Notes: generated from the letters alone by a model not told the origin. Positions 1 to 34,624 are shown, counted from the stretch's first letter. The stretch is 64,000 bases of DNA from a virus (IMGVR_UViG_3300012983_000040:22315-86314), one strand, 5' to 3'. Translations and numbers: made by a program.

Positions 1-3000
1 AGTATTATTCCAGTACTAATTCTTTACTGCATTTATAATTTCCGTAGGATTTCGAGTGTAGTTTCCATTCGCGTCTTTTAAAGAATCGTAAGTTGAACCT
101 ACTGGTTGAATTAGACCTGTTCTATTGTTTAATCCTAATGCAAGAGCATCGTTTACCATTGAAGATAATGTTACAATGATTCCTTCAGAAAATGAACCTT
201 CCCACTAGTAAAAAGGAACTAATATAGATTTATTAATTAACTCTTCTTTAGTCACTGGTGGCTAATCAAATAATATGTTTCCATTATTATCTACCTAATA
301 GTAATAATAATTTCGCACCTCTTCCCCATCTTTAATAATAGGTTTACCCTATTCATCTAAAGCTATCTCACTATAATGAGTAAACCATCCTCTGTCCTTT
401 ACAGAACTTATGGCAAACCACTAGTTTTTCTTACCTGACCAATATGTATTCATCTGCCAGAATAAAGCACCTAAAAGACTAGCTTGCATCAAAGCTCGCT
501 TTTCGTGTGAATAGTAGCCATAAAGTTTATCTGCCATTGACTTATATGATCTAGCTTGTTTATTAGTATAAGCTTGGGGTAATGGTTTGTATACGCCTTT
601 CTTCGGTGGTTCTAGTTTAAATTTAGTTCCGTCTGGATATATAGCACCTTCAATTTCAAATTGTTTAGCCATAGCTCTGTATAAAGCTTCTTGTTCTCTA
701 TACTTTGGGTTATTAACATCTCCTTTTACTAGAGTACTAAATCTTGGATCTCGATTAAAATCATAAATTAATTCTCCATCTTCATTTAAATAATGGGCTT
801 CATAAGTGCCATCGTGTCTCATATATGACTCGAAAATAGTCATTCTGTTATAAAAGTCTGGTCTAGATGCAAATCTGAATATAAAACTATTAGTATTTCT
901 AAAAATGTTATGTGAATTTTGAAGGTGTTCTGCATATACATTAATGTCCATATCATTGATTCTATATAGCTAGTTTAATCTTTCTAACTTTGTAGGTCTA
1001 TAATCAAACTTTGTCATTTCTTTATATACATCTACAAATGAAGCAACCATTTCAGTAAGAGTGAATCCAAATCTTCCATCTTCGTTTCTCCATATTATTC
1101 CAATATCCTTATAAATACCTTCAAGTAACTGATAAATTTGTTTTGGGTTAAATCCAAGAGTAACTACAGATGCTAAGTGCATAATTTTCTAAGCATACTC
1201 ATATATCTGCAAATCTTTATCATCCATAACTTTTCTACCTAACATAAGAAGAACATTATCTTTTAAGTATTCTAGTTCTGCCTCTCTTTTTATATTTTGA
1301 GAAAACTCCTAAAATATTAAATCAGCGTGTGCTGCTTTAATTAGAGTAAACGCTTTTTCTGATTCTTCTTTCATTTTATACGCAAATAGATGCTTTAAGA
1401 AAACTGATTGTAAGTCATGATCATATAAACTTAAATCTTTTAGTAGTTCTGCTCGTTGTCTCGGGTCTTCTCCCTAGTCAAATCTAGTCCTCATTACATA
1501 TAAGTCGTCTCGTAACTATTTTCCTTCTGGAGTTAAGAGATGCCCCATTTCTTTTTTTATTCTATCTTTAACTACATTCCATTTCCAAGATAAAAAGTAA
1601 TCCTTAGCTGCCGCTAATAAACCTTCTGTCTCCAATTTTCCTGCTGTTCCTTTATATGATAGTGGTACTCTAAGCCAGGCCAAATTTCCTTTTTCCAGCT
1701 CTTGTACCATTCTAGCTTCAAAGGCGATATCAGTTTCTCCTCTTTTTTTAAATCTATTAGAATTAATTGTTTTAATTACATACTTTAAGAATTTTCTTTC
1801 AGTAGCTGACAATCTGGTGTTATTAGCATATGGATTTACAAATACCCAATCTTCATCAGGCTTCCTAGTTTTATAATTAGTCATGTTTTCGTAAATTCTT
1901 ACTGAGTTTTGGAAAGTAGAATCCCCTAAATATGAAATTTTATTTTCTTTTTTAAGTTCAATTACCATTTTCTGTACTAATGCATGTGGTTTTTGCATAC
2001 TATCCGTAACTCTTTTATAGCAGTTGTCAATAAATTCTGTAATTTTATTTAAATTTTTGCTGGCCGTAGTACCAGGGTTATCAGTTTTAAGTCCTGAGTG
2101 TCCTTTAAGTAGTATATTGTTAGAATCTCTCCAGTTATCATATGCTTCAATTTGTTGTTCAAAATCATATCCTAATTCTTCAGCATATGCCCTATGTAAC
2201 ATTTGATACTACATATCTATTTCATCATCTGTTACATCAAAATCTAATCTTTGTAATTCTTTACCAGCGATTCCTTCTCTTATTGATTCCATTGACTTAA
2301 TTGCTTCATATAAAACTTCTGCCATAGAACCAAGTGGTTTTCCTTGATCATTTCCAACAATGTCAATTTCATTATTTTTATTTAAAAATAAGTTTTCTAT
2401 AGGAGTAAGACATTTATTTACTATTAGGTTATTTACTTTAAGATTTCTACCTTGTCTATCGTTTTCGACTATTTTTGTTCCAGTTCTTAATGTATCCAAA
2501 GCCTACTCTGCCATTGTGCAAAATTTTATGTCTCCTTTATGTCCACTATAGTTAATTCTATTAGGTCCAAACTCTTTATCAATATTTTTATACTTATTTA
2601 AAATTTTAAAAGAGTTTAATAACTATTTATTAGAAGCTGTAAGCCCACTATTTAAAAATGGATTAATTACCTTTATACTATGTATTTTTGATCCTTTAAA
2701 AATTTCAGTAGGAACAAAATTTAAAGCTAAAAGTGTTTCTATCATTGCCACATTACCGTGAACTGCATTTAGTAATGTTGCCTCTCCAGCTTTATCTACA
2801 ATATCGTTTATTCCTAATGCTTGTGTAATTAATTTATTTACATTTCTTCTATCTACTTGTCCATCAGTTCGTTCATGTGTAAATTTAATTACTTCAATAT
2901 TTTTTGTATATTTATTTTTTAGTAAAACAATACCCATTGCTTCTAGTACAGCAGGAATTTCTCCACTGTCTCCATATCCAATGACTTCATATTGTCCATT

Positions 3001-4623
3001 TCTAGTATACTTCCTAATAACTTTATCGTACCATTGAGCATCGCCATCTTGATGTTCTAATCTATTTGATGTATTAATAGTTAATTCTGTTTGATTATGA
3101 ACAGCTTCTTTAAAATTCTTTGCAGATGTTCCAACTCGACGTTCACATTGAGATAAGTATGCTTGTATTTTTGAAATAAGATCTAATTTAGATTTACCAT
3201 AAATAGTTTTTTCCCTTACCTTATAAGAAAATCTTTGTTCTATATCTTCTGCATCTGGATTTTCTTTATATTTATGATTTGGGTCCTCTATAAATTCTTG
3301 TATGTCTTTAATGGACCAGCTAATTTCTTTAGACTTATATGCAGTAAACCACCCTAAAAGAGTGTTCTTTATTTTTTTTAGTATATCCTAGTCATCTAAC
3401 TAGGCAATAGCTACATCGACAAATATAGTATCGATATTATCCTAAATGTGATTATACGACACTTCATTCTTAGTTAAATCATCGATTAGGGGTTTATTAG
3501 TTTCAATGTTTTTAAAATTCCAATTTCCGTCTGTTCGTGTATATCCTACTAACTATATTGGAGCAACAAGTACACTAATATTTCTAAAAGTAGGATTTAT
3601 TTTTCTTAGCATACGTGCATAGGTTGCTAATTGATATGTAAAAGCTCGTTTTTTAGCAGAACTATATTCATCTGGTGCTAAATCTTCTACTGCTACATCA
3701 CTTTCGGCTTCTCGCCAATAATCTGCAGGTGATACTTTATAATCTATAATAAAAGCATCGCCCTCTGGTGGTACAACTAATAAATCAATCATACCTGAGA
3801 GATTAACATTTTCATTTTTTGATGGATCGTGGGCAGTAGTTCTTAAAGATAATTCTGGAAAATATAAAAAGTGTCCAGTACCTTTAGGATCGTAAGTAGA
3901 TTCTATTGTAACTTTTAATTTTTTACAATAATCTATTACTTGTTTCATCTATTTTTCAGAAAGTAGAGCTTTAGTTTCTGGTAAGGCACGTTTTTTAAAA
4001 ATATTTAGTATATGATTTGAATCTAAATCTCCAAATATTGAAAAATTATTATCTTTAAAAGATTGCCTACTAAAGAATATTTCACAGAGATTATGAATTG
4101 CAGTACCTACTTTAGCTTCGTGTTCCCATTTTTCTTTTTCTATTTTAATCAATCTGTCAATTAATTCTTGGGCCATTATTGACGGAGTATTTCCATCTTT
4201 AAATTCAGGTTCTTCTGCAAAATCAGCTAATTCTTTTTCTGTAAATCTTTTTCCTGTAGAATTTCTCCAAGATTCTATTCTTGTATTAAAATAATTTTCT
4301 TCTATAAATTCTGGAAATATTAATTTTCCTTCTATTCTCAAGCCTGATAGAAATTTTGTTACCTAGGTACGTGTTTTATCAATTATTTCAGTACTCTAGG
4401 ACTATTTATTATATGATCTGACACTGTTATAATTTTTATAATCTTTACTTTTTCTAACTATAGGTTCAAGCTAATCAATAGTATTTAATTGAGATAGGGT
4501 ATGTTCTTGGAATACTGTATCTCCATACTTATCTAGTAACTTATCTCCACCTGATAGTAAAAAATCGTCTAGTTCTATCTCAGAATTAAACAATATATTT
4601 TTATAATAATGTTTACAATTCAT
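1..4623 (-). CDS. Giant virion cargo protein (runs off the left edge, >1540 aa, TAG=Gln) containing a PD-(D/E)XK RecB/Cas4-like nuclease domain
   Basis: ATG at 4623 (MNCKHYYK...). Fragments 421-951, 970-1182, 1516-2202, 2209-2499, 2623-2937, 3553-3948 and 3949-4341 are all in one frame; the fragment stops I checked are TAG and the frame stays open from 421 to the window edge. Motifs KVGTAIHNLCE, SGMIDLLV, IIDYK and YQLATY. Confidence 0.85.
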
Positions 4624-4624
4624 A

Positions 4625-5701
4625 TTAACATATTTCTTTTAATTTTCCTGATTTTAATAAGTCAGATTTATAATTATTTAGTAATCTGTGAATAAATGAG
4701 TTGCTCATTGTTCCTGTCATACTATTAAATATTTCTCTAGAATTTACTAATTTAGCAACTTTTTCAAGAGTTGATTTATAAAGTATATTACTGTCAATAA
4801 TTTTATTACTAAAGTCTCCATTTAATATACTATCTAGTAGTCTTCTAATATTATAATCAAGTTCATATTTTTGAGCATTAGACATTTTGGAGAAAGAAGA
4901 TTCTCTTCCTGCAAAGAATTTTCCTAATTCTTCAACTAAAACTTCTTCAGCTCTATCCATTTCAGTTCTATGTCTGAATTGGTTCATTTTGTATCTAATA
5001 TTTTCATCTTGAAGAACAATATTAAGTAAATCCTAATATAACTTTGGGTTTTCAAATCTAATGCCTCCCATAAAAAGATGCATAAGTTCATGAATTTTAG
5101 TGTCAGGAGTTGCATTATCAGTATTAATATATATTTCTCCATTCCTAATAAAACCTCTTAGTGTGGCTGCTCCAGGAAAATCGGGTAAAGTTGCTATATC
5201 TTTAGTAGTAACCTCATTAATTTTTATTCCATGCATCTCCTATGCTCGAGTTAATAAGTTACTAACTGCTCTATGTGCAATTGGCATATCCGAGACGGGA
5301 TCTATTTCTTTTGGAGTTATAGATGGACGTTTCTAGGCATTTATTAATACTTCATCGTCTATAATATTAATTTCAAAATTGTAATCTTTATGCAGTTTAT
5401 TTAATTCTTGAGCAATTTCTACTTCAGTTTCCTTTCCAGTATATTTTTTAACTAGCTCTAAAGAAGTATAGTAATTATCTCCTATAGGGTTTAATTTTAA
5501 TCTATTTTTTAGCTATGTAAATGAGTCCACCCCTATATTAGGGGGGAACTCATCTACATTAGGCAATCTATTAAAATCGTGTAGCCATTTGTCAACGATT
5601 GAGTAAAATAATTCTTCCTACTCTTTAGTATATGAGTCTGGAAGTATCTGTTGTTTTAACTCTTTAACCTAATTAATGTCTGTAATATCACAAAAATACA
5701 T
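4625..5701 (-). CDS. Zincin-like metallopeptidase (HEXXH), 358 aa, TAG=Gln
   Basis: ATG at 5701 (MYFCDITD...), TAA at 4625; fragments 5033-5236 and 4625-4987 are in frame. Motif RNGEIYIN...DTKIHELMHLF (5078-5092) with downstream AEEVLVEE. Confidence 0.85.
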
Positions 5702-5702
5702 A

Positions 5703-8700
5703 TTATATACAATTTTCTCTTATCATAGTAGAAGCCTTAGCCACAATAGCTAAAGGATTTACTTTAAAAATAAAACCTCCATTTTTATCTATTCCAACTT
5801 TTAATATCTTTTTTAATTCTTTTTCTGAAATAGTTAGTTCCTTATTATACACTTTATTGTTGAACGAATTTAATTTAATAGTAACTTCAGTTTTATTATT
5901 ATTTTTTATTAATTTAGCTGAAGCTACTCCATTTCCAAATCTTATTGAAGAGTATTTATCAAAATTAACTTCCGTGTCCATTTCTGGTGTATCATAATTG
6001 GATGTCCATACATTATCTACTAAGAAATAGTCATACTATCCCATATACCCATATGCCATTCTAGAACCTTCAAATTCATCTATTTCTTCATTATCAACTT
6101 TTTCAGTTTTATTTAATTTGTATATATCATATCGTAATGTCTATCTATTAAATCTATAATAATAAGGAATGTTTTTACTAGAAGCATTGGCGGCATTTAG
6201 TTCTGTATCGTGAGGAGCTAAAGCTATTTCCAACATTTCTGTAGTATAATCTACTCCTTGCTAGAAGTCATAATTAGTATCCATATGTCCAATAAAGTCA
6301 TAATAACGTTTAACCGCATTATCTTCATTAGTTTTAACAAATGGCTCAAACATAGGAGTCAAAGATTTACCTCCACTCTCGTTTCTAAAATTGATTAAAT
6401 TATAGTAAAATAGTAAATCTGCAATATTATATCCATTATCATCAGAAACTTTATAACGTTTTGTTCTTAAATCAAACAAGTCCATTTGATATTTAGAGAA
6501 AGCGTCCTATTCTACATCTGATTTTGGAATCATATCTATTGGAAGTGTATGTACAGTAATATTATTTCTATCTGCTGTTCTATTAGAATATGATTTAATT
6601 AAATCTCTTAAAAATGTATTTACGTTTGTCCCGTCAGCACCTAACACTCTAATTGTTTCTTTATTCTATTTTTGTGTGACACTAGGAGAGAATAATAGTC
6701 CTTGTTTAGATAATCGAGGTAGAACTTCTGTATTCATCCAGACCCTAAATGTTTCATTCCCTTCTCTTGTACCTAATTCAATATAAGTTGGTGTATCATA
6801 TACTTTATAATCCATTGGATTAATTGGTCCTTCACCATCAGGTTTACTAAATATTTTATTGTGGGCTGGAATTTCTATATAACTTACTTCTTCTCTTAAA
6901 AATGCATTAGTCATTAAACTGTTAATCCAAGTTTCTCCCTTTTTATAGAAAGTTTCTGCTTTTTTACCTGTTAATCGCAGTTTATTAGAAACAAAAGGTA
7001 GTATGACTTTTAACATCATTCTATCTTTTAGAGAATTTCCAGTTTGTGCAAATATAACATTTGCAGTCTATAAATACTAATTAAAGTGTGGGACATTTGT
7101 TGCTACCCATAGAGGATTAAATGACTATTTTATATAATCATCGTAGGCTTTAATAACTTTATTTCTATAACTAAGATCTTTAAAAAACTTCCAAAAATCT
7201 ATTAGAAGATCATCATTTTCTAATAATTCTGCGATAGTTTCTTTTGTTTCCTTAGATAAGTTCTTTCTTTGAGCTCCTTCTTTAATTATTCTAGTAAAGT
7301 TATTATAAAATCTATAGGCTTCTTCAGTCTTTGTTTTTTGTCCTTGATTTAGTCCTAAAAGCTCACGTAGTTTTCCCATTTCATGTTCACCTGCTTCTAG
7401 AGTTTTAAGATTTTCTAAATCCGCCCACATGTTTCCTCGTATTTTCTACTCTTGAGTTTCAGGGTCTAATTCATATCCAAATTCTTTTATATGTGAATCC
7501 GCTATTTCATGAATTGCGACAGCATATGATATTAGATTATCTATACTACGTTTTCTTGATATCTCATCGTAACTATACCCTCGATTTCGATAATTATTTT
7601 CTTTATATTTACGTTTATCTGCTGCCTTTACTCCTTCATTTAATTGAATTCTTCCTTTTAAAAGTTTAAGTCTCTATAAGTATTTATTGAATTCTCCAGT
7701 CTTTGTTACCTCTATTACTGTATCACGGACTCCATTCTTTCCTTTTAAAATAAAGAGAGAATCTAGTGATTTACCATCAAACTCAATTCCTTGTATACCT
7801 AATCCTAATTCATTAAACTAAGTATTCATTAATTTTAAAGCAGTAGTAGAAATATTAGTATTAGTTAAAGTCTTCCTATCTTTACTTAAAATATCAAGTA
7901 TTTTAGAAGCATATTTAGTAGAACCACCATCGGTAAATATGTTTGACTTCATCATTCTAGATAATACCTGTGCTGTTTGAGAAGTCATTATTTTGAAAAT
8001 ATCTTCAAATTCCATACCTATAGCAATACCATATAAATATAATCCAGCTAAATCTGAACCAGCATTTAAACGTTCTAATTTTAACTCTTTAGCATTATCT
8101 GTCGCTAGTGTCATAATTCCTGAATCGTTAGATCCTGCCCATTCTGTATGGTTTATTGACCGCTCATATAATGCATTAGCAATATCATTAGGAACTCCTT
8201 TAGATACTAGTTTATCTATTATTTCCTATTTAGTTCCTTCTCCAAGATAAATATCTGGTAAGGAATAATAGTGTTTATCAGTTCCATTTTTACTCTTGAT
8301 TACAACATCAAATAGTATATTACTTATGTTTGCATTATTCGCAATAGCATTATTAGTTGCCTAAGTAGTTGTGTGAAGAACTTTCATTCCAGCAGATGCG
8401 GCTATACCAATAACACCTTTTCCTGTATGGTTCTAGTTTAAAGCAGCTCCCATAATAGAACTATTTCCAGGTCTACTATCCTATGGTCTAGCACCTACAT
8501 TAGAATCTTCTCCTAACTATTTAGGTTTAGCAGCACTCTAATCTACTGTAGTTCCGGCAGCTATTGCGTTTGCAGGAGCTTCTGCAATTTCTATAGTTTT
8601 CCAAGCTACGAAATTTTTTGATATATTCGTTTTTTCTTCCTTATTTACAACATTAATATAATTATTGTGTTTATTAATGAATACTTGGAGAGCTAATACT

Positions 8701-11700
8701 AAGTCTTCATCTTTTAAAGTATTAGGATCATAATAAAGTTTTGCTGTCCTATCGTACTAATGTTTTGTAAAGTATTGCTATTGTGCTTTCTTTACATCCC
8801 TTAATAGGTTAGCTAGAAGTTCCTACTGTTCTCTAGTTCTGTGTGACTTTAATTTATATTTTAACTATTTCTTGGATACTTGATTCTAAGTATTATTAAT
8901 TTCAGAATCAGTAGTGCTAGATGTATCATTACTATTCGCTTCTATATCTTCTTCTGATGCATTAGAGGTATTCTATTTATTTAATTCAAATAATGATATA
9001 TACTTAGAGTAATCGATACTATTATAAGTTCCTGACTCTAAAACACTTTTACGCCCAGTTGGGTAAGGTAATAATCGTAACGATTCTTCTAATTTTGTCC
9101 AAGAGTTCATCTAAAAATAAGGACTCCATGCCGAGAACTCTCCAGCTTGATTAAATGCAAATCCCATAAATGTTGCTTTATCTACATCATAGTCAGAGCC
9201 CTATAGTCTAATCTATTCAGCACTTACATAACAGTCATTAACATCTGATTCTGTAAATCCAACAATTTCCATCGCCATAAAAGACTACATTCCCTATGCA
9301 GGAATACGTGCTACCGTAAATAACTATGAAAGGTTAAAGGCTGCTCTCATCTTTTTTGCACGATACTTGAGCTTATTATAAAAATCTGCATAATTTTTTT
9401 CAAATTCAGATTCTATTATTCCTCTATCTTTTCCCGGAGTTTTTAAATATTTTATAATAAGATTAACAAATTCTTCCTACTTTTTTATGTATTCATTAAA
9501 ACTTCCACATTTTTCGATTAAAGATTTTATTTTAGTGCATACATATTTATTGTCAATCTCATTCAATGCTTGCATAATAGTTTCTGAATTACTAGAATTA
9601 TTAAATTCTATATCAACATAATTTAGATTTGATAAATAGAAAGCTAAATTATCAGTAGAAATTATTTCTTGCTTTGTAATATTATCATAATATATAGAAT
9701 CTCTTGTACTTGATAGTGGGTATAATTTCTCCGTTGGTTTCCAATCATTCATTCTAAATGTACCATCATCATCAGTAAAAGTTTCAATTACTTGTTTATG
9801 TAATTTACTTGAATGACTTACTTCTGGAGATTCTGAGTATTTTAAATAAATATGTTTACCGTCAGCTCTTTTTAAACATATATCATATAATGTTTTATCT
9901 TTATCCTTCTGTCCTGGATTACTAGTTCCTATATAATTTTCTAATAATCTATTCAAGAAAAATTTACTATTAGTCATAATGTCCGATAAAGTATCTCCTT
10001 TTCTTATACCAAACTAAGTAGCATAAATTGGGGGTAATAAGGCTTCAAACTTTTTAACATCATAAGAATTTACTTTGAAATCTACAACGTTCATATTCTC
10101 ATCATAAATTTGTAGATTTTTGAATCCCTAAATAGCTAATAAGTCCTTTTGTAGAAGTCTTTCTTTCTATACTTTATCAAGAACTGGGATATCTGTTTTT
10201 AGATCTGCAACATACATCCACAATTCTTGTAATTCTTGTTTTACACCGTATTCTTTAAAAGTTTCCTCTAAAGCTCTTTGAGGGTTATATAAACTTCCCT
10301 CTCTCTGTTTAATTCTAGATAATGACAATAATAATTTCTACTATATATCTCCTAAGATATTATCCTAAACCACTTTGATGTCATATCTATTAGCTTTAAG
10401 AGGATTCTAATTTAGGCTGTTAATGCCATTTATGTGAATATTGTGACTTCCTAAATTTCTTCCATATAGATCTATTTTTTGTACAGATAATATGTTATCC
10501 TCAAAGTCATTAACGTCGGATATTCTTACGAGTTTGTTTTTAATTAATCCAGTCTCTTCTTCAATATATGTTACTTTAAAAAAGTTAAATTGATTATTAT
10601 CTGCAATGATTTGATCCTTGATGTTTTTTAATGATTCCTTCTACCTGGTAGTAGCCTCATATAAATCATTTGATACGGTGGTTCTATCATATACTTTACC
10701 CTCTTTGTAAATTATTTCATTTAACGAATAATTAAGTCCTGCCAATTTAAATTTCCATAGGTAATAGTAATCTGAATTTCTTAAATGAATTAACTATCCA
10801 TTAAGAGGGTGAATTTTAGTTGTATTAGTTAAACTATCTATTTCAGGTTCAATAACTATTTCATATGTTCGCCCAATTTCAGTTTGAGGAAGTTTTATTC
10901 CTTTAGGTAAATACTACTAAATTCGTTCTAATTCATTAAAAGTCTCTATTTCTGAGAGCTGTTTATTTCCGTACACTTTATACTGGTCGTGAGATGGATT
11001 TAATACAGCTAAAACTCCATATAATTTTGTGCGGATGGCTTTTTTATTAAGTGAAGAAGTAATAACAGTTCTTAACATACTATACGTAGATGGATCACTA
11101 AAAGCAAACACACCTTCAGTGTCTTTAAAGTTTAAGTGTTTACCCTACTTTGCTTCAGAGATTAAACGTTCAGCTATTGCTCTTGGTATATTTGCTCCTC
11201 TAGTTGCACTAGATGTATGAACTAGTTCGTCTATAATTAATTTAGATACAATTTCTTGTAATCCAGCTCTATCATTAGTTGAAAAAACCTTATTTAATTC
11301 GGTCATAGAATCTGCTATTGTCAAGCTTGTTAGTGCAGCTAATGCTTCATATACTTCTTGTGCTTTTTCTTGAGTATATCCACGTTCAGACAAAGCAGAA
11401 ATAACCTAGGTCATCATTGAAACAGTAGATTGGTCTGCCTCGTGAGTAGGATCTAATTGAATACCAGCATCATACATATCTGTTTTAAAGAAGTTAAGAT
11501 CTTTATCAGTAAAATAATCAGCTTTAGAATTAATATTTGCTGCATATTTTTTAATAGCACCTTCTGTAACTACATAATGAATTTCTGACTCTTTCATTGG
11601 TTGCCAATATAGATCAGCATTACGCATTACACGGTTATCTCCTTGATATGTAAATTTCTTTCCATGCTATTCTGCCTCATGATCATATAGTAGTTGTTGC

Positions 11701-14700
11701 AAAGTACCATTTACTCTTTTAAATCTAACTTTACATGCAGTATCAGCTACTATTTTTATAGAATTTTCAGAATATTCAAATTTTCCATCTTTATTTATAG
11801 TAACACTATTATATTTACCTAGAACTTTCCAAAAATCATAATTATTATTTATTTTGACCGTCTTTTTTTCTTCTACAAATCCGCCATCTTCTATTAACCA
11901 TCCATCTTCAGAATTTATGTTACGTATTCTTGTTTTGACTATATAAGTATTTTTAAGTCTTTCTTTAACTTCTGGAGCTACTTTTTCTGGAGAAAATACC
12001 TTTTCAAATGATACAATTTCTTTAACTACTTTTTTGCCTTTGTATGTATCATAATACATTGCTCCAGATATTTCTTTATCTACTCCAAACTACATTCTTG
12101 CTATTCCAAGAGGATTTGCTGGGAATTTATTGTTTGGTGACTAAGGAAATAAAGTTAAATTTACATCTAGTTCATTTCCATCTGGATCTGTCCATATGTG
12201 ATGAGACATTTTCCAATGAAGTCTTTCCTGGGCAAATGAGTTTCTCATTTTTGCGTTAGTTAAGGCAAAAGTAGCTGTTTTAATTAATTCTCCAGCAACA
12301 GTTCTTGGATCATATGCTCCTATAATAGGTTTTTTTGTTACTCCAGTAATTTGATTATTTAGACTATAGTTTTCCCAATGATGCTAAAATGCACTTACCC
12401 AAGTTGCTCCATCGTATGGTTTTACTGTTTGAATATCTCCCATAATACCAGAGCATTCTGCTATTACATCTTCTAAGACAGCTACATTTACCTTAGCTAA
12501 AGTTCCCCAAGTATCACCTAAAAGATACTATAATTTTGTTGCAGATGTAATTACATTTCTTTTATTATTATCAAACCATTTATAGCTTTCTTCTTGTAGA
12601 GTATTCGTACCTTTTTTTGCATCAGCCCATATATGGGAACCAACACTAGTAAAGGAAGATAAAGTGGACCAATAAAATGAATTTAAATTAAACTATTCAA
12701 ATATAGGATTTACCTTTATTCTAGCTTTTTTACCTTTATATTTAAGATTTAGTTGACTTAATTTAAAGTTATTTTTATAAAATTCTATTTTATTATTATT
12801 ATTATCAACTCCTTCTAATATTGCCAAGTCTGCGCGTGTAGATAACTATACTGGATTTAATATATATTCTTCCTTAAGTGATTCTTCGTCTATTCTAACT
12901 GGTATCTTTTCATAAGCAGTAACCCACTCACCATTATCGTTCTAAACCTCTACAATACCAAAAGCCATTCTATCCCAATTCTAAGTGAACCATATACTTG
13001 CAAAATCAGACACTAATTCTTTCTAGGCTTCAGGTCTTGTCATTCCGGTCTGTTCTAAGACAAGTAATTTCTGTTTGTACTCTGGAATATTATTAAATAT
13101 ACCATATACGCTGTGATATAGCTCTGTATGACCTTCTAGAGCATGTAAATCAATGACTACATCATTTTTTAGAAGATCTGAAATAAATTCTAAATTACTA
13201 TCTTTAATAAATTTCTTATATGAATCTTCTACAAAATTAGTTGTTACAGCAATGTTTCCATCTTTGTCAATAAATCTATTAATAAATGATTCATACGAAG
13301 AACCTAACTGTTCTTTTGTGTTCTATGCTCTTATAAGTCCGAATATAACTGAATTCCATTCTAAATTTTTATATTGCTCTTTAATCTGCTCTAAAAGAAC
13401 TTCATATTCTTTTGCAACTTTATATCCTAAATTAGTTATATCTTTACTTTTAATGGTCAATTTATCTATTCTCTCTTGATATTCTTCTGGAGATAATAAT
13501 GTAAATCGACTTAAAGCTTCTATAAATGAAAATCCTAATTCTAAATTGTGAGTTTTGCGATTAACATGATAATGTACGTTATTAGCAAAAGCAATTGGAT
13601 TATGCCTGTTTTGAGAATTATGTAAGAAGACTATTTCTCTAAATTTATCAAATGGGTCAATACCCTATTTATGACACCATTCATTAAATGAAGTAAAATT
13701 ATCTCTTATTGATAATGGTATATCCGTATTATACTTATTATCGTATGTTTTCTTAATAGTTTTGAAATCATTCTCTATATTAATAAAACAATTTCGATAA
13801 GTGTCTCCAAGAGTATATTTAATTTCTTTTTCTGCATCTTCTGCAGTTAAAATTTTAGCTAAATCAATTATTACTTTTGGAACATTTGGTTTATCCGAAG
13901 ATACTGATTCAGTAAATCTAGGATCCCATTTTCTTCCCATATATACAGGAAGTAAGAAATCCATAACAAAACTACTGTAAGCACTCTCCTTAAAGTTAAA
14001 GTCTTTATGTTGTTTTGAGTCATATCCATTAACTCCCTCTCTAGACATAGCGTATCCTTTAAATGCAGGCATAAATTCTCTAATCATAATATTTACAGGG
14101 TCCAAAGCATTTACGTAATTCGATATTCTAGAAAATTTTTCTGCAATAAGCATTGAAGATTGCCCAATAGTTAATGATGTATTTTCGGCAGTTCTAACTT
14201 GAGTTTTAAAGGCTTCACCTCGAACTAATGTTTGTGCTTCTACAAATTCCTCTAGCATATTACTTACTCCAGAAGAAATTAAATCTATGCCCTAGTAATT
14301 TCTACTTGTTCTTAAAGATTTCTAATCATCACCATACCAGTCTTTTATTGCTTCATCATAAGAAAATTCTGTTGGATTTCCGATTTCAAATCCCTTATTC
14401 AAATACTAATTTAACTATTGATGTGTTATATGATCAGCTCCTGCCAATCCTCGCATTCTTAAAGTATCTATATCTACTACTTCAATGTCCTTATTATCTT
14501 TTTTAATAGTTTTTGTGTATGGTTTATCGTTTTCTGTAGTATAGAATTTAAGTTCTCTAATTAAATTATTTTCTAGAATACGAACAGTATACATCTAATC
14601 ATTTTTTAGCGTGCCTGGTCTTTGAATAATTGAAGGATTTGCTTTCTTTTCTCTAAATAATTTAATATTTACCAGAATAGGTAAAGTAGAATTAATAACA

Positions 14701-16787
14701 TGAATTGCGGCTCTATTAAAATCATACTTCTAATCAGCGTTCCTAAATTTATCTAAGAAGGCTATTCGCAACTCTTTATTATTTATTAAATCTATCTATA
14801 ATATATCTTTTGCCCATTGACATACTACGTTGAAGTCTGTTTCAGTAAGTACTTGGTCTAAATCTCCAGTTCCGTTTTTACCTCTTGTAAACAACTAAAA
14901 AGGAGTGTCTTCTCCTGCTTTATATTTTGATAATATCCAAGCATTCTTAAAGTTAGGCTATCTAGTATCAAACGAGAATCTCCAAATATCTCCTGCAAAA
15001 TTCTTTAGCTCAGCTGATACTCTTCTTATGGCCTATCCGACTACTTCATTTCTTTCGGCTATAAATTGTGGATTTTTATATTCACTATTTACATTATACT
15101 TTACTAGAAAATCATCACATTCTCCGGCTACAAATTGAGAATTAACACTCTCTTTAAATCTAGATAAATTAGTATCTAGCTATCTTGGATTTAATGTGTC
15201 TAGAGTAATAGTTCCATCATCTCTAATTCTATACTAAGTATAATCTATAATAGATGTTGTATCAAATAACTATGCTATCTGATTAAATATTCGATTAGAA
15301 GTAGAGTAAACTGAGTTTCGGTCCTTAAATAAATAATGATGTAGATTGTCAAACACTCTTTTCTCTATTGATGATTTAAATGGAATATTTAATATATTTC
15401 TAGTATCAAATAATAATTTTAAATACCATGCCGAATTTCCCCTTACTTTATTAACAATGTCTTGTAAGTAAATTCCATATCTTCCCTTGCCTAATTGAAC
15501 ACCTTTGTCTTTAATTAACTGGGCTATTTGTCTTTTGTAAATAGAACGTTGTTCAAGTGTTACATTATTGTATTTATCTATGTCAATAAGTTTATTATTA
15601 GGCTTTAGAAGATTAATTATACTATCTAAATCCAACTAATGTGCGTCATCAGTATTAACATAGAATAAAGCATCTCTATTGTATAAATTATTAAACCGAA
15701 AATCTCTTTTAATAATCTGGGTAAAATATACAATGTGATCCTTTTTTAAATATACACCCGTTTCTGATTCAGAATTATTAATATTACTTAAAATTGGAAA
15801 ACTTTCTATTAATATTTGTAGACTTTTTGGAATTACATCATAAGCTCCTTTTTGTTGTAGATCTTCTTGTTGCCACGTTAATATTTTATTAGCATCTTCT
15901 TTAAGGTTAAATTCATATTTATCCTAATCACATACTAATTTATCCTTAAATTTAAATCTAATTAAAGTTTTAAATTCACTAATTAGTAGTGAATCAAAAT
16001 GTTTAAGAATAAAGTAAGCATTATAGGCTGTTAATTTTTTTAAAAATGTTTTTTCACTAGTACTCCTATGTCTCCACATAGTTAATGTAGTCGTATTTTG
16101 TGAAAAATTATAGAAATTTTTAAGTTCTTTATTAGTGTTAAACTAGAAATAATCATCTAATTTAGCAATAGTTACATCATCTCCTTCCCGTAAATTTTTA
16201 GGTAAATTATTGTTTGGGTCTATTTGATTAATGTACTCCAATATGTCTTCATACATTTCCTACTGAACTGTATGTATTTGTTTGTTTAGTGATTCATTAT
16301 TTCCTAGAATTTCTTCTTCTTCTTTTAAATTTAACATAATGTCGTTTATTAATTTTCTCCTAAAATATTTTAACATTACGTTAGTTGCAGAAGTATTCAT
16401 ATAAACTCTCTCAATAAAGTTAGATGTCTATAGAGTATTTCCTGTATAATCCTAAACAGTGTCTGCAAGGGAGTCATTTACTGACTCCCTAACAGATTCA
16501 TATGTTTTATCTGGAAACATCCAAGAAAAAATTTCTTGTTTAGTTGTAGGTGTGTCTCCAATAGAATTTATTAATTCATAAATTGTATTAAGTGCTTCTT
16601 CATTGTACTCATACTCTACAAACTCTGGGGTTTGAGCAAAATCTTGAATTTCACGTTTCATATCATCAATAAATTCCTACTTTTCTTCTGGAGAAAATTC
16701 ATTTTCTGGGTCTATTAATGCTTCCTAGAATGTTTTAAGTTGGTCTATAATGCTTTCATAGCCTTTTGCGCATGTGATACTTAACAT
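5703..16787 (-). CDS. Virion-encapsidated two-barrel (DPBB) DNA-dependent RNA polymerase of crAss-like phages, about 3694 aa, TAG=Gln
   Basis: ATG at 16787 (MLSITCAK...), TAA at 5703. Thirteen track fragments share the frame, and the twelve upstream ones each end in TAG (checked). Catalytic-type motif RL(Q=TAG)GSDYDVDK at 9180-9203, upstream ARIPAQGMQS, and GIQLDPTHEAD...SMMTQ, resembling crAss/phi14:2 gp66-type RNAPs. Confidence 0.88.
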
Positions 16788-16788
16788 A

Positions 16789-19700
16789 TTATATACATTT
16801 TAATATATCGGTTAATTCTTTAAATCTTTCTGGAGTAATCTGTTTCTTTATCTTTAGCATTGTAAATTGACTCTTAAGCCAAGCTTCTGGACTCTTTCCC
16901 TAATTCTCTAATATTTGAGTTAATATTTCAGCTAGTTTTGGTATACTATACTTTCCTGGCTCAAACTGCCCTTCTGTAAGATCTCTAATTTTATTATATA
17001 ACATACTAAACTCTGTAGATTCAGGAGTAATATCAAATTGTTTATTAGAATCTGAGTAAACTGGATCAGTTATAATAAAATCTTTAACTATTTCATTCAA
17101 TCCCTCAAAATTTAATGGTAAGACTCCTTCTTTTAATACTTGTAGAGCTTCATTGCCTTCTAATATTTTGAAGTGTCCATCTAAGCTACCCCAAATTGTA
17201 AGTCTTCCATTATCTAAATCTAACATTGTTAAAGTATACTCGTTTCCATTTAAAGTATATTTAATTGGGATTTTAAAGTCTATTGTTTTTCTATTTAGAT
17301 TTTCTGAATCAGAACTATATATATAATCATTAGTTTCTGAAATAAAATTCCAATCTCGGTCATCCAATGGATATTTGTCATATAGTAATAGCTATCCATC
17401 AGTAGTTAAAACATATGTGCCTTCTTTAGTAGAGAAAAATGTCTTTACTTTATATTCATCAAAATCTATTGGTTCCTCTAAGTCATATTTAACTACACCA
17501 ATCTAATCTACTGCCTTTGATTTTAATGCTACAGTAACAGGATCTGCCATTACTACTCTTTCAGGTACACTATAATTTAAATCTGTTAAAGGCTTTGATT
17601 CTTCTGGTTTATTTAAGGGACTATCACTAAATGTTATTATTTTATCATTATTGATATTTACTTTATAATATTTAATTCCTTGTCCACTGAATTCCTGCTC
17701 TAAAATTAAATCTTCTTCAGTAACTTGGGATAAATCAATTTGATTTTTCTTATCTCCCATATCTTTTACTTTATAGATTTTAAAATCTTTATTAGGATTT
17801 TTTAAGTCTTCTGAATAGATAACCAACCACTGATTGTTTCCTAAGTTTATTGTGTATGTACTTGGAATATTTGTTATATTTATTTCTGGACGTCTTAATA
17901 CATCTAAAAGAGATGATCTAGAAACTCCTAATACGTTACGTTTTTCAGTATGATCAAATATATCCGCATATCCTGTAGGAACTCCATTTTGTAGAGTTCT
18001 TAACATTGAACCTTGCCCAATTACTCTTCCATTAGATTGTTTTTTATTCATTCTAAGTACCTAATCAAGTATAGACATTAAATTTCCTACTAATGGACCA
18101 CTTGTTATAATAGAAGCATACTAAAATGGACTATCTTTATAAGTAAATCTTCCATTACCCTAAGTTGAATCTGTAATTACTCTATGAAATTCAAAAGCTT
18201 CAGTATTAGATGAATTATTGCTAAGACGCATATGTACAGTATATGCAGGATCTTTCTCATATTCGGGATTGTATAATAGTGCCTAATCTTTAGCTGCCTC
18301 TTTTATGAAAGCTCTAACTTCTTCCATTGGGTAAGATTTGTACTACTCATTTCTTCCCATATCTTCTGGTGCATAAATAAACTATAAGAACCTTCTGAGA
18401 ATAGTCCGCAATTGGGCTCCCTAAGTACCGTCCTATTTATTAATAGGCTTAGTCTTCATACGATCAATAATTGCATTCACATAACCTTTATTTTTATAAT
18501 CTCCAGACTGCAACCACTAATCTAACTCTCCCTTTATAGTACTTGGTAATTCTCTTTCGGCTATATTATATATATCCTAAATTTTAGCCTTACGCTCTTC
18601 ACTTATCTGTCCTTCAACATACGACATTTTTAGTATTTCATCTCCTATAGATTCTAAGTTATATAATGGATCAAAAGATAATGTCATAACGGCACTACAT
18701 ACTTTATTTATAGGAGAATCTTTCCCATTAGTGTAGTGCGCTGCAAATACTTTCTAAAGAATTCTATAAATTGTGAATTGATTACCTATATCTTGACGAT
18801 TATCTGTGTCATTTTTTCCTTTAAATATATTCTCGTGTTCAGATTTGATAAATGCATCAAAATCCGTTTGAGGTGGTCTAACTGCAATTATTTTTACTTT
18901 AGTAGGAAGTGTTGAGTCCTATAACTACTTATCTAGATAATTAAACATTTCAGTCTCATCAAACTAACCATCTAAAGTCTCAAAGGCTCCTGCATCTGCT
19001 ATTAATATGTATTGAGCACCCGTTTTTAAAATAATTCCATTTTCGTTGCCTATTTGTGAATAAGAACCCTGTCCAATTACTGTATAAATATTAGATACCT
19101 ATTTATCGGGTTCTTCGTAGAGTCCTCTAACTTCATGTAATGTTAGTCTTTCAGTACTTAAATCTCTAGCAGTTGCTTCATATCCATCTGCCTAATAGTC
19201 AAATCCTCTGTCACTAGCAGAAACGAACCATCCAAGACTTTCAAATAAACCATTTTCATGTGTTGGAGTTTTTACTAATTGAGTTGCAGGATGTAATAGA
19301 TATGCTTCTCTAGAACCTCTCATATAGAAGTCTATTAATTTAATAAAAGTAGCAGCTCCCAATGGTGGATTATTTTTATTGTTTTCTATTAAGTCTAATA
19401 AATCATTATATATTTTTTCATCCTATCCATGTAGAGTTAAATTCTTTAAACTTAATCCTTTTACAATTATATCCTATACCCGAGGATCTAAAGCATTTTT
19501 ACATTTATTAAATAAAGTTCTATAATTAGGAATTGTTGCTACAGGAATAGTGAGATATACAATATCTTTTCCTTTCTCTGCTCCCTTTTTACCTATTACT
19601 AATAAAACTTCGTGTCTATTTACTTCACCGTTCTTATCTCCGAATCCTTTTGGACCCCAAGCTCTTTCTCTTTCTCGGTCTACATTTAATTGTTGTCTTG

Positions 19701-22700
19701 TTTCTAAATCGTTATATTTATTAGTATATGCAGTTACTACGTATCGCATTGAGAGTTCTTCAAGAGTACATTTATTAGTTCCTGATAAATTTCCTAACTC
19801 TAATAGATCATATATATTATTTAAAATGTCTTTATTATCTTCTGTACGTACATAATGATGTATTAATGTGATTATTTTAATAAGTTGATTTTCTATAGCT
19901 GTCTTTTCTTCATTAGATAAGTTTCCACTTTCTAACTTCTAAAAATCAATATCTAAATAATCTGTCTTTCCCATTAATTTAGCTAACTGTCTAAAACCAT
20001 ATACACAGTCGCGTCTAGCCTCTATATCTGTACGATTAGATAAAAGTCCATCTGTTGTTAGACCTGTACGTAAAGCATTAAAGGTATATAGAACATAATT
20101 TAGGAATTCTGCTTCAGTTTCAATTTCCTTTCCATTTTCATTAATCCATTTTGTTTTTTTATTTTTTGTAGTTTGTATTGTAATTGGATGTTTTTCTTCC
20201 AGTGTTTTACTTTCATGTATAGATAAATTAGAGAATCCTGAAAGGCCTAACTACTCTCCACCTTGTTCTGGCTCAGTTGGATCGATTTTATGTCCTTTTA
20301 CTTCAAATTCAGCTCCATTGGTTCCAGTACCATTAGAACTTCCAGGTGTTACTTCTCCTGAAGTTCCATTACTTTCAGAAGCCTAATTTTCTTGGGTTTT
20401 AATTTTTATTGTTTCAGGAAACATTTCCTACAATAACTATTTAAAGTCCTGTGACCTCTTTGCCACAAATGACTCGGGCATAGCTATTTCTTGTGTGTTT
20501 GAATCTGGATCATGGTTTGCTAATTCTAAGTTGGGAACATTTCCTGTAATATTATCAATGATTACTGTTCCTTTCTTTTGTCTTGTTAATCCAGTATAAT
20601 ATTCTCGTAATAACCTTTCTATTTCAGGAGCATCTTTTTGATTAAATCTAGTTGAAAATCTAATATCATTTAAGTCAATAATATAATAATTGTTTTCTGA
20701 ACTTTTAAGGGTAGTTCCTTTTCTAAATTCAGTTTTATTTTTCCACTCTGGATGCTCTTCAGTTATATATTTATACGCAAGACTATTATCATTTGAATAT
20801 ATTAATGTAACTTTTTCTCCATCTTTCAGAGTTTTATACATTCCATTAATGTATTTTTTTGCATTAGCATCTAAAGTTGCACCTGGAGAAATATAGGTTC
20901 CGTAAAAGTTTTCATTCTATTCATCAAAATAATAATGTGCTGTGTATTTGCCTTGAATTGTTTCCTCTGCTCCTGTAAAAAAGTTAATAGCCCCCTCAAT
21001 AAAAGCACGCAGGGTAGTGTTATTTACATCTGTCTATGTATTTGTACTACGATAAGATAACTAACTCTTAAAGCTTCTAATAAATTGTACATCTCTAAGT
21101 CCTAAATTGTGAGTTTCTAATATAGGATTTTCAGCCTAATCTTTTTCTCCTTCATTTACTTTTATCGTTCCGTAAATACCAGACTGTGTAAAGTCGCCAT
21201 GTGCTAATACAATAATTCCATTTTTAGTAGCAAAATCATCAAGAACTGTCATATCGAATTGTGAAAATTCTGAAATTTCATCGACAATTATAATTTTTGG
21301 AAGCTGACTTAAACCTGTATTTAATTCATAGTCAAATTTTACATCACCGGTTTCATAATCCAATTCAAATATTTTTTCAGTTCCATCGCTATTTTTTCCA
21401 GTTAATTTACCATCAGTTACTTTGAATGTTTCATCATAGGAATCAAAATTCTTAAGAATCATTTTCATTAAAGTCTCTCGTGTAAAAGTCTTAGAATCTT
21501 TAGCACCAATGCTATCTCTCATTTCTATAGCTTTAGCTTCTGGAGTATCTCCACTAGTATTTTCTGGACCACATATCCATAACCTTTTATTTTTATCAAA
21601 ATTAGGTACTATCTTTTCTATAAGACTAACTAATTCAGGAATATATGTGGATTTACCGAATCCTGGTCCAGAACTAACCAGCACAGTACTTTTAAATTTT
21701 GGATTTAAAAATAATGATAAGAATTCCCTAGCAAATTTTTTCTATTCTTCTTCTCTTTTAACTAAATCTTCACTTGTTAAATCTGGATAGTCTACCTTAT
21801 AACTTTCTATATATGCTTTCCTAAAATTTTCAAACATTTTAGGATTTACAATCATAGAAATTGCTGTATATTTCCATGCAGTCTAAATAGCTGATGGAAG
21901 TCTATTTTCATGTAATGAATCTTTTAGATTACTATAGAAAACTTTTGGATCTAATGCAGCAATAGAAGCTAAATACCACATTATAGCTGAGTCATCTTCA
22001 AGTTTATCTGATTTATTAAGTGCAACAATTCTATCTGTAAATGTAAAATTCTTTTTACTAATAAAATCAGCTAACTTAGTCGGATCATTTAATATTTCCT
22101 AATTTTTACTAAAGAATTTGTGTAATGCTATCTCAAAACTAATAAGCTCTTTAGTTATAGCTTCTTTTACTTCTTCAGATGTTGAATCCAATCTATGTTC
22201 TACCTATTGATCCTTTAAATTATTAAAGTTAGTTAGTTTTGATATAGCATTTTTAAATTCGGATATGCCATTCCAGTTTAGTTTAGATTCATTTTCAAGA
22301 ATACTAATTTTATTAGCAATCTATCCCATTAGATTCAATCTAAAACCTAAGTCTGCCCTATCCATAACTTCTGTCCTAAGCTACATTGCATTAGAGGCAA
22401 CTTCTTTCCAATAAAGTAGTTTATATATTGAATTTTGTATATTGTCAATTCCTTCTGCTACTCTGTCAGCTGAAATTGTTATTAGCTTTTCTGGGATAAG
22501 TTCTGATTTAGTTTCTTGTGATAGCTTATTTGCTGTAGCATTAAATCCTATATGATTAAATATAGATTCTACTTCTTCTGTTGCAGCAGCATAACTACTT
22601 CTCAGCATCTGTAAAATCAATATAGCATCATTAATATCAGAAATTAATGTATTAGATAAGATAAATTCATCAGTTTTTGTTAATCTATCCATTAAAAAGC

Positions 22701-25700: not shown

Positions 25701-26841
25701 TTTGAATCTCTTTTGCAGGATCTTTTAATATTCTTGAAGCGTCAGAATAGAATATTCTAGGAGCATATGTTGCTAATCTTTTCTGGGACTCTAGGAACAT
25801 AAAAGTGTCTCCTACCATATTTATAATATTCTCCATACTAAATGGATGCTATACAGCATATTCAGAGGATGTTTGGTTAAATGATTCAGCAAATGCTGTT
25901 ATAGTATTTAATGTAGGATTATCACTTCCTGATACTAATTTACCTAAAGTTCCTAGTGCATCTACTAAACTAATTCCTAGACTTGCTGCTACATAATATG
26001 GTGCTATTGTAGTAAGAGGAGCTATAGGTAGTAAAGGTAATATTTTAAGAGTATTTCTTGCAATTGATCCTGGTAAACTTTTATTAATTCCATCAGAATC
26101 AAATGGATCATACTTATTAATCCAAGAATCTTCTTTTGTTAATATATTCCATGGAGACACAATTTCTTTTCCATAGGTACTTTTTCCATTTGCAAATTCT
26201 GTATAATATTCTCCATTAGGATCTAACTTATATTCCCCTTTAACATGTGCTATTTTTGCAGGATCGTCTGTAGGATTTCCGTTTATATCTACATTTTCAT
26301 CATATGTAGCCATTACTTTCGGACGCCAGAAATCTCTAAAAAATGATTCTTCTACTGTATAATCAGTAAATTTTCCAGTATTAGAATCATATATTTTATT
26401 CTATTCTGCCAGCTCCATAGGAGTCTTAGTTCTTGGTCCAGGTTGATTTAATCCAACAATACCATATGAAATATGATCGGGATTATTTATGATAGTCATA
26501 TATGCTCCAGAAGACTAGCGTCGCTCTTCTGGAGACACAAATACGTTATTTTCTGCAAAAATTCTACCTTGGTTTTGTAAATCTTCATAGTAGGTGTTTC
26601 TCGCCAAGTTATTATATGATGAAGCTAGTTCCACGTATTTTTCATGGAACTTAGCTTCATCAAACTTTCCATCAGTCTAAAATTCAGGAAGTGCTCTAAT
26701 CTAAGAGTTACTTATATAAGCACTTTCTGGACCTATGGATGTATTATTTATATTAATCCCTACATTCTTAAAATCAGTATTTGTAAAATCTGGATTTGAT
26801 AAATTCTCACCTACCCAGTCATATTGTTTACGAATTCCCAT
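16789..26841 (-). CDS. Giant virion cargo protein, about 3350 aa, with an internal superfamily-1 helicase domain and N-terminal hydrophobic helices, TAG=Gln
   Basis: ATG at 26841 (MGIRKQYDW...; an in-frame TGA lies just upstream), TAA at 16789. Fragments 16900-26313 share the frame. Motifs GPGFGKS (21649-21669), IIIVDE, HGDFTQ, QLSYRS and YYTGLTRQK. Confidence 0.82.
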
Positions 26842-34581: not shown

Positions 34582-34589
34582 ATTATAAC

Positions 34590-34624
34590 AAAAAAGGAGC
34601 ATATAAATTAATATACACTCCTTT
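34590..34624 (-). terminator. Rho-independent terminator-like hairpin after the 90-aa gene
   Basis: Minus strand AAAGGAGTGTATA-TTAATT-TATATGCTCCTTT followed by TTTG; about 13-bp stem with two G-U wobbles. Confidence 0.7.

Follow-up and report, generated by a model that had tools for sequence, protein, structure and literature searches.

Paired terminal cysteines suggest an undescribed tether between giant cargo proteins of crass-like phages

Cysteines at the facing ends of consecutive proteins

The window analyzed here, a 64,000-nucleotide (nt) stretch of an uncultured viral genome (IMGVR_UViG_3300012983_000040, positions 22315–86314), encodes on its minus strand four consecutive proteins which, judging from their sequences, are probably virion cargo of a crass-like phage, packed in the head and injected. 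Each end at which two of these proteins face one another carries a cysteine (Cys), and the available comparisons of related sequences strongly support the view that these residues act as pairs across the junctions of an open linear chain, in which the proteins are arranged head to tail. An inter-chain disulfide is the most likely link.

The window is open only if TAG is read as glutamine (TAG = Q), as translation with table 11 yields fragments, and the TAG = Q reading reveals a tight minus-strand operon. Chain member 1 (16789–26841; 3,350 amino acids, aa) contains a P-loop (GPGFGKS, 21649–21669) and has its Cys3349 encoded at 16795–16797. It is followed by a 3,694-aa putative virion RNA polymerase (RNAP; 5703–16787; Cys6 at 16770–16772, Cys3693 at 5709–5711), a zincin-like protein of 358 aa (4625–5701; Cys4 at 5690–5692, Cys358 at 4628–4630) and, as last member, a nuclease protein of 1,723 aa (1–4623; Cys3 at 4615–4617), the first 1,541 residues of which are encoded within the window, its gene extending approximately 549 nt beyond the left edge. 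The termini read ..KCI, stop, one base, MLSITC at the first junction (16770–16797), ..NCI, stop, one base, MYFC at the second (5690–5711), and ..EIC, stop, one base, MNC at the third (4615–4630); Cys is thus present on six of six facing termini. Each junction consists of TAA, one base and ATG with a +1 change of frame, and no read-through, frameshift, or single open reading frame (ORF) joining the window genes is present.

Verification of the codon coordinates confirmed the termini exactly as they had been listed in the sequence-only reading that preceded this analysis, although the range given there (4621–16797) ended just short of Cys3 of the nuclease protein. Its description of Cys as scarce in the chain proteins also held, with 28 Cys in 9,125 residues (0.31%), Cys4 and Cys358 being the sole Cys of the zincin-like protein. 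If the Cys of each protein are placed at random, the joint chance of the terminal pattern is ~3e-12. When all window genes were checked, no other gene had a Cys at residues 2–6 or within the last two residues, the MLLFC start of a 1,946-aa ORF being false (see below). The outer ends of the chain differ from the inner ones: member 1 has no N-terminal Cys, as had been noted, and the 638-aa protein encoded upstream of it lacks Cys altogether. The C-terminus of the leftmost gene, the inspection of which had been proposed, can be read from the full-length database protein P0034, which ends ..SPIYTQ and contains no Cys in its last 855 residues. Misassigned start codons, named beforehand as a possible refutation, were rejected for the chain, since independent database gene calls gave the same N-termini.

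Conservation of the terminal Cys in homologs, on which the pattern could likewise have failed, amounted to 97–100%. In the family alignments the terminal Cys were present in 18/18 homologs of member 1 (Cys3349; family P0067–P0084), in 13/13 full-length relatives of the RNAP for both Cys6 and Cys3693, in 29/30 and 30/30 zincin sequences for the N- and C-terminal residue, respectively, and in 31/31 sequences for Cys3 of the nuclease protein, which is invariant beside the catalytic residues in an alignment of 23% mean identity. None of the 22 internal Cys of the window chain proteins was universal; the five of member 1 recurred in 0–5 of 18 homologs and the 11 of the RNAP in 0 of 13. Among the member 1 homologs, some of which match PF13604 (AAA_30), the last Cys was located at −1 to −7 in 17 of 18 cases and at −12 in one (P0076), an N-terminal Cys occurred in 0/18, and the earliest Cys was never found before residue 274. 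The zincin family, which comprises 30 sequences down to 32% identity, had its N-terminal Cys at position 3–4, and the terminal pair was often the sole Cys of the protein. In the nuclease family (n = 33) Cys was at position 3–4 in 32 sequences, the exception being a truncated start call, while a C-terminal Cys occurred in 0/33 and no Cys lay 55 or fewer residues from the C-terminus.

The putative functions of the chain members were assigned from motifs and domains. The DxDxD motif of two-barrel RNAPs is present in one member, as the octapeptide GSDYDVDK (residues 2529–2536; DYDVD at 9180–9194), and the corresponding octapeptides of RNAP type in crAss001 gp50 (GSDFDVDK) and phi14:2 gp66 (GSDFDIDK) also belong to proteins with Cys at both ends. 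A phmmer comparison of the 3,694-aa protein with the solved virion RNAP phi14:2 gp66 gave no match, as did a PDB sequence search, and a profile of the RNAP family matched crAss001 gp50 at the motif only (independent E-value 0.0095). The zincin-like assignment is made at the level of the HELMH motif (5078–5092), whose residues H204, E205, and H208 are invariant in the 30 sequences; no Pfam, PHROG, or PDB sequence match was obtained for this protein. The nuclease protein contains a PD-(D/E)XK domain (PF12705), which was the sole Pfam match when the zincin, the nuclease protein, and the RNAP were searched. PHROGs yielded no match for the four proteins scanned (zincin, nuclease protein, and two upstream cargo-like proteins), and apart from the catalytic motif and the nuclease domain, similarity of the window proteins to those of the cultured crassviruses, among them phi14:2 (including gp66) and crAss001, was below detection by phmmer, profiles, and PDB sequence search. 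A run of giant co-oriented genes near small cargo and tail genes, as in the Crassvirales cargo block, is present, and motifs, gene order, and protein size together suggest a placement in the RNAP-associated cargo block of this order. Presence of such block proteins in virions is documented by proteomics for phi14:2 and crAss001 only, the phage of the window being uncultured.

Junctions in related loci

The IMG/VR database was scanned with an alignment of the zincin family, which was required because a single zincin sequence used as query recovered no related loci. The scan retrieved 80 loci (58 non-redundant), which use the standard, TAG = Q, or TGA = W code. When annotated phages were searched by tblastn with the RNAP core and the zincin as queries, the only matches were unannotated gut contigs and the Leptolyngbya cyanophage Lbo-JY46. 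In the 58 loci, 113 of 140 adjacent pairs of large ORFs had Cys on both facing ends, as compared with a Cys near an end in 7–9% of the control ORFs of the same loci, and the comparison of chain genes with other genes that had been proposed as a check thus supported the pattern. Fisher's exact test of chain pairs versus controls gave P ~2e-77, a value that overstates independence because the loci are related. Overall Cys content was 0.41% in the chain and 1.6% in control ORFs. The last member's C-terminus carried Cys in 0/58 loci.

The remaining pairs fell into two groups. Ten pairs apparently had Cys on the C-side only, but in the cases of the type found in L008 (one checked and those with the same 88-nt gap) use of a GTG start restores an N-terminal MANC. 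Seventeen pairs, with gaps of 14–1,738 nt, had neither Cys, and these are endonuclease ORFs or else ends that introns or homing endonucleases have generated, an explanation that covers all of them except a split in L019 (47-nt gap). The splits are often located exactly within the catalytic motif (..LQGS / DYDIDK..).

An element of 0.3–1.7 kb interrupts the RNAP gene at this site in many relatives (L008:5629–6808, L003:14205–15266, and L098:13122–13413; also in L043, L076, L078, and L081), and the motif looks like a recurrent intron insertion site. The element in L008 encodes a LAGLIDADG homing endonuclease; the 290-nt insert in cr108_1 is non-coding. Annotated records list the exons of such interrupted RNAP genes as separate genes.

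Natural rearrangements of the chain are informative as well. Loci with a fused RNAP–zincin gene (L081, L084, and L085) have no Cys near the fusion point and keep the Cys of the outer junctions. The crAss002 protein gp33 is a fusion of gp50-like and gp49-like parts with no Cys within ~300 residues of the join. Conversely, an additional chain member of 333 aa in L059–L064 has exactly two Cys, both of them terminal. The annotated start of crAss002 gp33 (L087:9270–9368) is probably 32 codons early; residues 33–35 read M-S-C, in agreement with the N-terminal rule, and the only Cys of gp32 (−2) would be the partner of this one.

The anatomy of the junctions was determined from 94 non-redundant contexts. 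The C-terminal Cys is followed by 0–2 residues in 92 of them, whereas the N-terminal Cys is at position 3–4 in 83 and never past position 6. Given their extreme-terminal position and the short overhangs, the Cys would sit on short flexible tails, and in the AlphaFold2 model of the zincin (predicted local distance difference test, pLDDT, 86.8) residues 1–5 and 352–358 are coil outside the core. Overhang lengths on the two sides of a junction were not correlated. Glu occurs two residues ahead of the C-terminal Cys in 36 contexts, and no conserved His or second Cys was found near the terminal Cys in the junction contexts.

A trivial origin of the pattern, by chance, through annotation artefacts, or as by-product of a nucleotide signal at the junctions, was considered because the 13-mer TGTATATAATATG occurs at two of the window junctions and all three have the form TAA-T-ATG. 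In the relatives, however, Cys is retained despite varied spacing, different codons, and three genetic codes: genes are spaced by −11 to +11 nt with overlaps and gaps of many lengths, save for two measured junctions with gaps of 29 and 1,035 nt. TGTATATAATATG was therefore rejected as the cause. Together with the agreement of independent gene calls on the ends, the small probability of a random arrangement given above, and a change of strand in crAss001 (see below), these comparative data refute the trivial reading, whose residual probability is negligible. Instead of being undermined by wrong starts, the rule itself exposed the GTG starts, the probable mis-start of crAss002 gp33, and the false MLLFC start.

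Occurrence in characterized phages

The pattern is found in phage phi14:2, whose proteins gp67, gp66 (the crystallized virion RNAP), and gp65 contain 1, 2, and 1 Cys in 1,797, 2,180, and 1,421 residues, respectively. These 4 Cys in 5,398 aa are all on facing termini, namely at the last residue of gp67, at positions 3 and −2 of gp66, and at position 3 of gp65. In crAss001, a single Cys occurs in gp47 (−3) and in gp49 (5), and gp50 contains three (5, 1334, and −9). As the genes for gp50 and gp49 lie on one strand and that for gp47 on the other, and gene spacing varies, the conserved feature must be one of the proteins and not a nucleotide motif. The single Cys in each of gp67, gp65, gp47, and gp49 also led to the rejection of intrachain cyclization between N- and C-terminus.

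Residues 1724–1866 of crAss001 gp47 (L005:16119–23144) gave a PD-(D/E)XK match to the profile of the window nuclease family (E = 1e-7). The nuclease domain thus is part of the first member in crAss001 and of the last member in the window, and the Cys topology is unchanged by this domain shuffling.

The rule is also kept in DAC15, IAS virus, crAss002, cr1_1, cr118_1 (Suoliviridae), cr127_1 (Crevaviridae), cr108_1, and MT835470, and spans four families of the Crassvirales. In addition, it is kept in Cellulophaga phage phi4:1 and in Lbo-JY46, whose two giant proteins have 2 Cys in 4,300 residues, located on the facing ends. According to its taxonomy line, phi4:1 belongs to the genus Lightbulbvirus outside the Crassvirales; its near-twin phi17:2 is placed by the crAss001 atlas among the non-gut members covered there. 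In phi4:1, a 119-aa protein with two internal and no terminal Cys (gp36; L091:14714–15073) is encoded between the chain members gp37 and gp35, and its record carries no virion-protein mark.

Nature of the link

The conclusion that the chain is linear and its Cys paired draws on the invariance of the terminal Cys, the Cys-free outer ends, the joint loss upon fusion, the paired gain with a new member, the Cys-free pseudo-ends, and the strand switch. This part of the head-to-tail chain envisaged in the sequence-only reading was supported by comparison; beyond it, we infer disulfide chemistry, pairing in gene order, the timing of bond formation, and a role in ejection. The terminal Cys might instead act singly, as anchors to the portal or inner capsid, as processing sites (e.g., for the zincin), or as redox sensors. 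A zincin protease does lie within the chain. However, the numbers of N-end and C-end Cys are always equal, the outer ends never bear Cys, both residues of a junction disappear together on fusion, a new member brings both, and single-Cys members exclude cyclization within one chain, which makes an independent action of each Cys very unlikely.

We regard the chances as about even that the cargo is tied head to tail by one inter-chain disulfide per junction and ejected as one thread. Member 1, the RNAP, the zincin, and the nuclease protein would then form, in this order, a pseudo-polyprotein of 9,125 residues and ~1 MDa, in which the links, being placed on short flexible overhangs, would add almost no branch to the thread. 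The disulfides would form after the particle has left the reducing cytoplasm. On its way through the tail during infection, the thread would be a single, partly unfolded polymer with the same N-to-C polarity throughout; its members would thus arrive together and in order, and the reducing cytoplasm of the host would then split it into separate proteins. A link at the very ends would suit a channel of <50 Å, passage through which already demands partial unfolding; according to the crAss001 atlas, gp47, gp49, and gp50 are capsid cargo and must partly unfold to exit.

Several observations favor a disulfide over other chemistries. The virions of crAss001 contain real inter-subunit disulfides (crAss001 atlas), a disulfide would leave the thread nearly unbranched, and the depletion of internal Cys is expected if scrambling of disulfides is selected against. 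A shared metal (linear Cu(I), or Zn with added ligands) or another reversible thiol link at the same junctions would fit all comparative evidence for paired junctions equally well. Such a link would need no oxidizing environment and hence suit phages of gut anaerobes, and the frequent Glu ahead of the C-terminal Cys could be counted in its favor. Two thiolates alone, however, make a poor Zn site, there is no conserved His or second Cys nearby to complete it, the variable and uncorrelated overhangs argue against a fixed coordination geometry, and both the strong internal Cys depletion, as selection against disulfide scrambling would cause, and the true disulfides elsewhere in the crAss001 virion speak against metal. 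A metal or other thiol link therefore appears quite unlikely.

The disulfides could also serve as tethers for co-packaging, for equal stoichiometry, or for retention of an RNAP complex, in which case neither a single thread nor pairing in gene order would be necessary. Sequences reveal which ends bear Cys but neither the partner nor the purpose, and the capacity estimate in the crAss001 atlas assumes equal copies, namely six for every one of the three RNAP-associated proteins. Yet packaging takes place in a reducing cytoplasm, where disulfides cannot guide it unless their formation is catalyzed, and the extreme-terminal placement and strict head-to-tail polarity, which a thread needs, are not needed for mere retention. 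We consider this function unlikely, but of some weight. The proposed modeling of neighboring members as complexes was carried out with the database proteins P0005 (97% identical to the window zincin) and P0034 (residues 1–420), and the zincin and the N-domain of the nuclease protein reached a score of 0.37 as compared with 0.00 for the best of three controls. Agreement between the runs covered at least 47% of contacts, with a partner pLDDT of at least 80. Of 80 solved complexes, 58 attained the mark applied to these scores, as did 2 of 110 mismatched pairs; only 7 of the 80 solved complexes, but both passing mismatches, passed it with scores of 0.60 or less. The prediction supports contact between the two proteins weakly.

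A number of points weigh against a disulfide-linked thread. Gut hosts and their surroundings are anoxic. Support for the link comes from comparison of sequences, and because the loci are phylogenetically related, locus counts exceed the number of independent observations. Some C-terminal Cys are located deeper, at −9 in crAss001 gp50 and −12 in P0076, and local charge complementarity is only mild (+0.54 on the N side, −0.31 on the C side). A lone Cys at each terminus is not sufficient to dictate which N-end meets which C-end. No thiol oxidase was found, in a genome record that is 47% complete and by an Erv1/ALR search that was silent for its controls as well. Finally, both reduced and non-reduced samples were analyzed in the crAss001 study, which did not look for linked species and reported none.

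In the same phage record but outside the window, the replication block contains a thioredoxin-family ORF (PF00085, E = 2e-14; G000:C1:14946–15194; L092), which is probably linked to nucleotide reduction. An annotated thioredoxin-domain gene is also present in cr108_1.

Neighboring genes

The gene order of the window (1,939, 638, 3,350, 3,694, 358, and 1,723 aa) is identical in the relatives L093–L095. The 638-aa (26844–28760) and 1,939-aa (28762–34602, true start at 34581) proteins, both encoded on the minus strand upstream of the chain members, are outside the Cys chain. Both are cargo-like; the latter has a single internal Cys, and its relatives have 0 Cys in 2,023 and 1,889 aa. The positional counterparts in crAss001 (gp46), phi14:2 (g068), DAC15 (gp60), and IAS virus (gp59) likewise contain 0 Cys. 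Between 26844 and 39508 of the window, putative cargo proteins of 613, 467, 190, 230, and 638 aa have zero Cys, a Cys-free run that recalls the suppressed Cys content described for ejection proteins of N4-like phages. The block lies downstream of Cys-rich genes for proteins of 1,646 and 1,376 aa, which are tail-like by position only.

The 1,946-aa ORF (start at 34602) was rejected as a further carrier of an N-terminal Cys, because the leader of L094 contains an in-frame stop and the gene calls of relatives begin with MAQ; its true start is Met8 at 34581 (MAQVIK..). The leader (34581–34602) is conserved in relatives and may have a regulatory role in the cargo operon. In the standard-code relative L095, genes for a resolvase, an IS605-family OrfB/TnpB, and a Rep3 replication protein adjoin the cargo genes (338–2042 and 8544–9575), just upstream of the first chain member.

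Significance and comparison with known systems

Crass-like phages are the most abundant viruses of the human gut. How several proteins of 150–400 kDa pass through a tail channel of <50 Å is a question that was raised in the crAss001 atlas and taken up anew in the 2026 N4 study. If true, cargo forming one thread whose links are cut by the target cytoplasm would offer a concrete and cheaply testable answer to this channel problem and would explain why the genes are, depending on the lineage, fused or split at no apparent cost. Avoidance of Cys in ejected phage proteins would moreover acquire a counterpart as a positive signal. For annotation, the rule helps to identify true starts (as probably in crAss002 gp33), pseudo-ends made by introns, and the order of the chain after gene rearrangement. 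Its presence in phi4:1 (Lightbulbvirus) and in a cyanophage extends it past the classified Crassvirales. These Cys are mentioned neither in the crAss001 atlas and the phi14:2 virion RNAP paper nor in those on N4 and DEV, and full-text searches found no description; in agreement with the earlier remark that the pattern had not been reported, this suggests that the paired-terminal-Cys tether is undescribed.

The closest known counterparts of the window block are gp67-gp66-gp65 of phi14:2 and gp47-gp50-gp49 of crAss001. As in the window, these are consecutive giant virion proteins encoded near small cargo and tail genes; the middle member has the motif GSD[FY]DxDK and Cys at both ends, the first member a C-terminal and the last an N-terminal Cys only, and zincin-like and PD-(D/E)XK domains occur somewhere in the block. 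The window differs by having four members instead of three, with the 358-aa zincin standing alone and carrying a Cys pair of its own, by the much larger size of its proteins (3,350 and 3,694 aa), and by recoding (TAG = Q). The order of domains is shuffled, the PD-(D/E)XK domain being in the last member in the window and in the first (gp47) in crAss001.

In the N4-like phages (Schitoviridae; virion RNAP gp50, or gp71 in DEV, with gp51 and gp52), a giant virion RNAP is likewise expelled together with smaller ejection proteins through a narrow tail. This RNAP exits probably unfolded or as beads on a string, and the ejected proteins are strongly Cys-suppressed; since these N4-like proteins are selected to lack Cys, the retained terminal Cys of the crass-like chains stand out. 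The N4-like RNAP is one essentially Cys-free chain of ~3,500 residues, whereas the window has several chains with one Cys per inner end. The near-absence of Cys that characterizes Schitoviridae-type ejection proteins hence does not extend to the window chain, in which every inner terminus strictly retains one Cys. The two polymerases have unrelated folds, T7-like in the N4-like phages and of the two-barrel type in the crass-like phages.

Real inter-chain disulfides in a crassvirus particle are known from the gp57 dimer and from the tail hub and ring proteins of crAss001. These structural bonds belong to folded interfaces in the shell and the tail and are located neither at the ends of cargo chains nor in a linear chain. 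Fused polyprotein forms of the block occur in some crass-like phages (Drobysheva et al.), and the literature proposes cleavage of the fused forms but not linkage of the separate ones. We consider it plausible, if somewhat doubtful, that the separate proteins constitute a redox-cleavable pseudo-polyprotein in which terminal disulfides replace peptide bonds, and that fused and Cys-paired split genes interconvert freely. The fused forms (crAss002 gp33, L084, and L085) contain the same domains in the same order in one thread, whereas the window genes are split by stop codons and a +1 change of frame, and in the latter the Cys pairs would stand for the absent peptide bonds.

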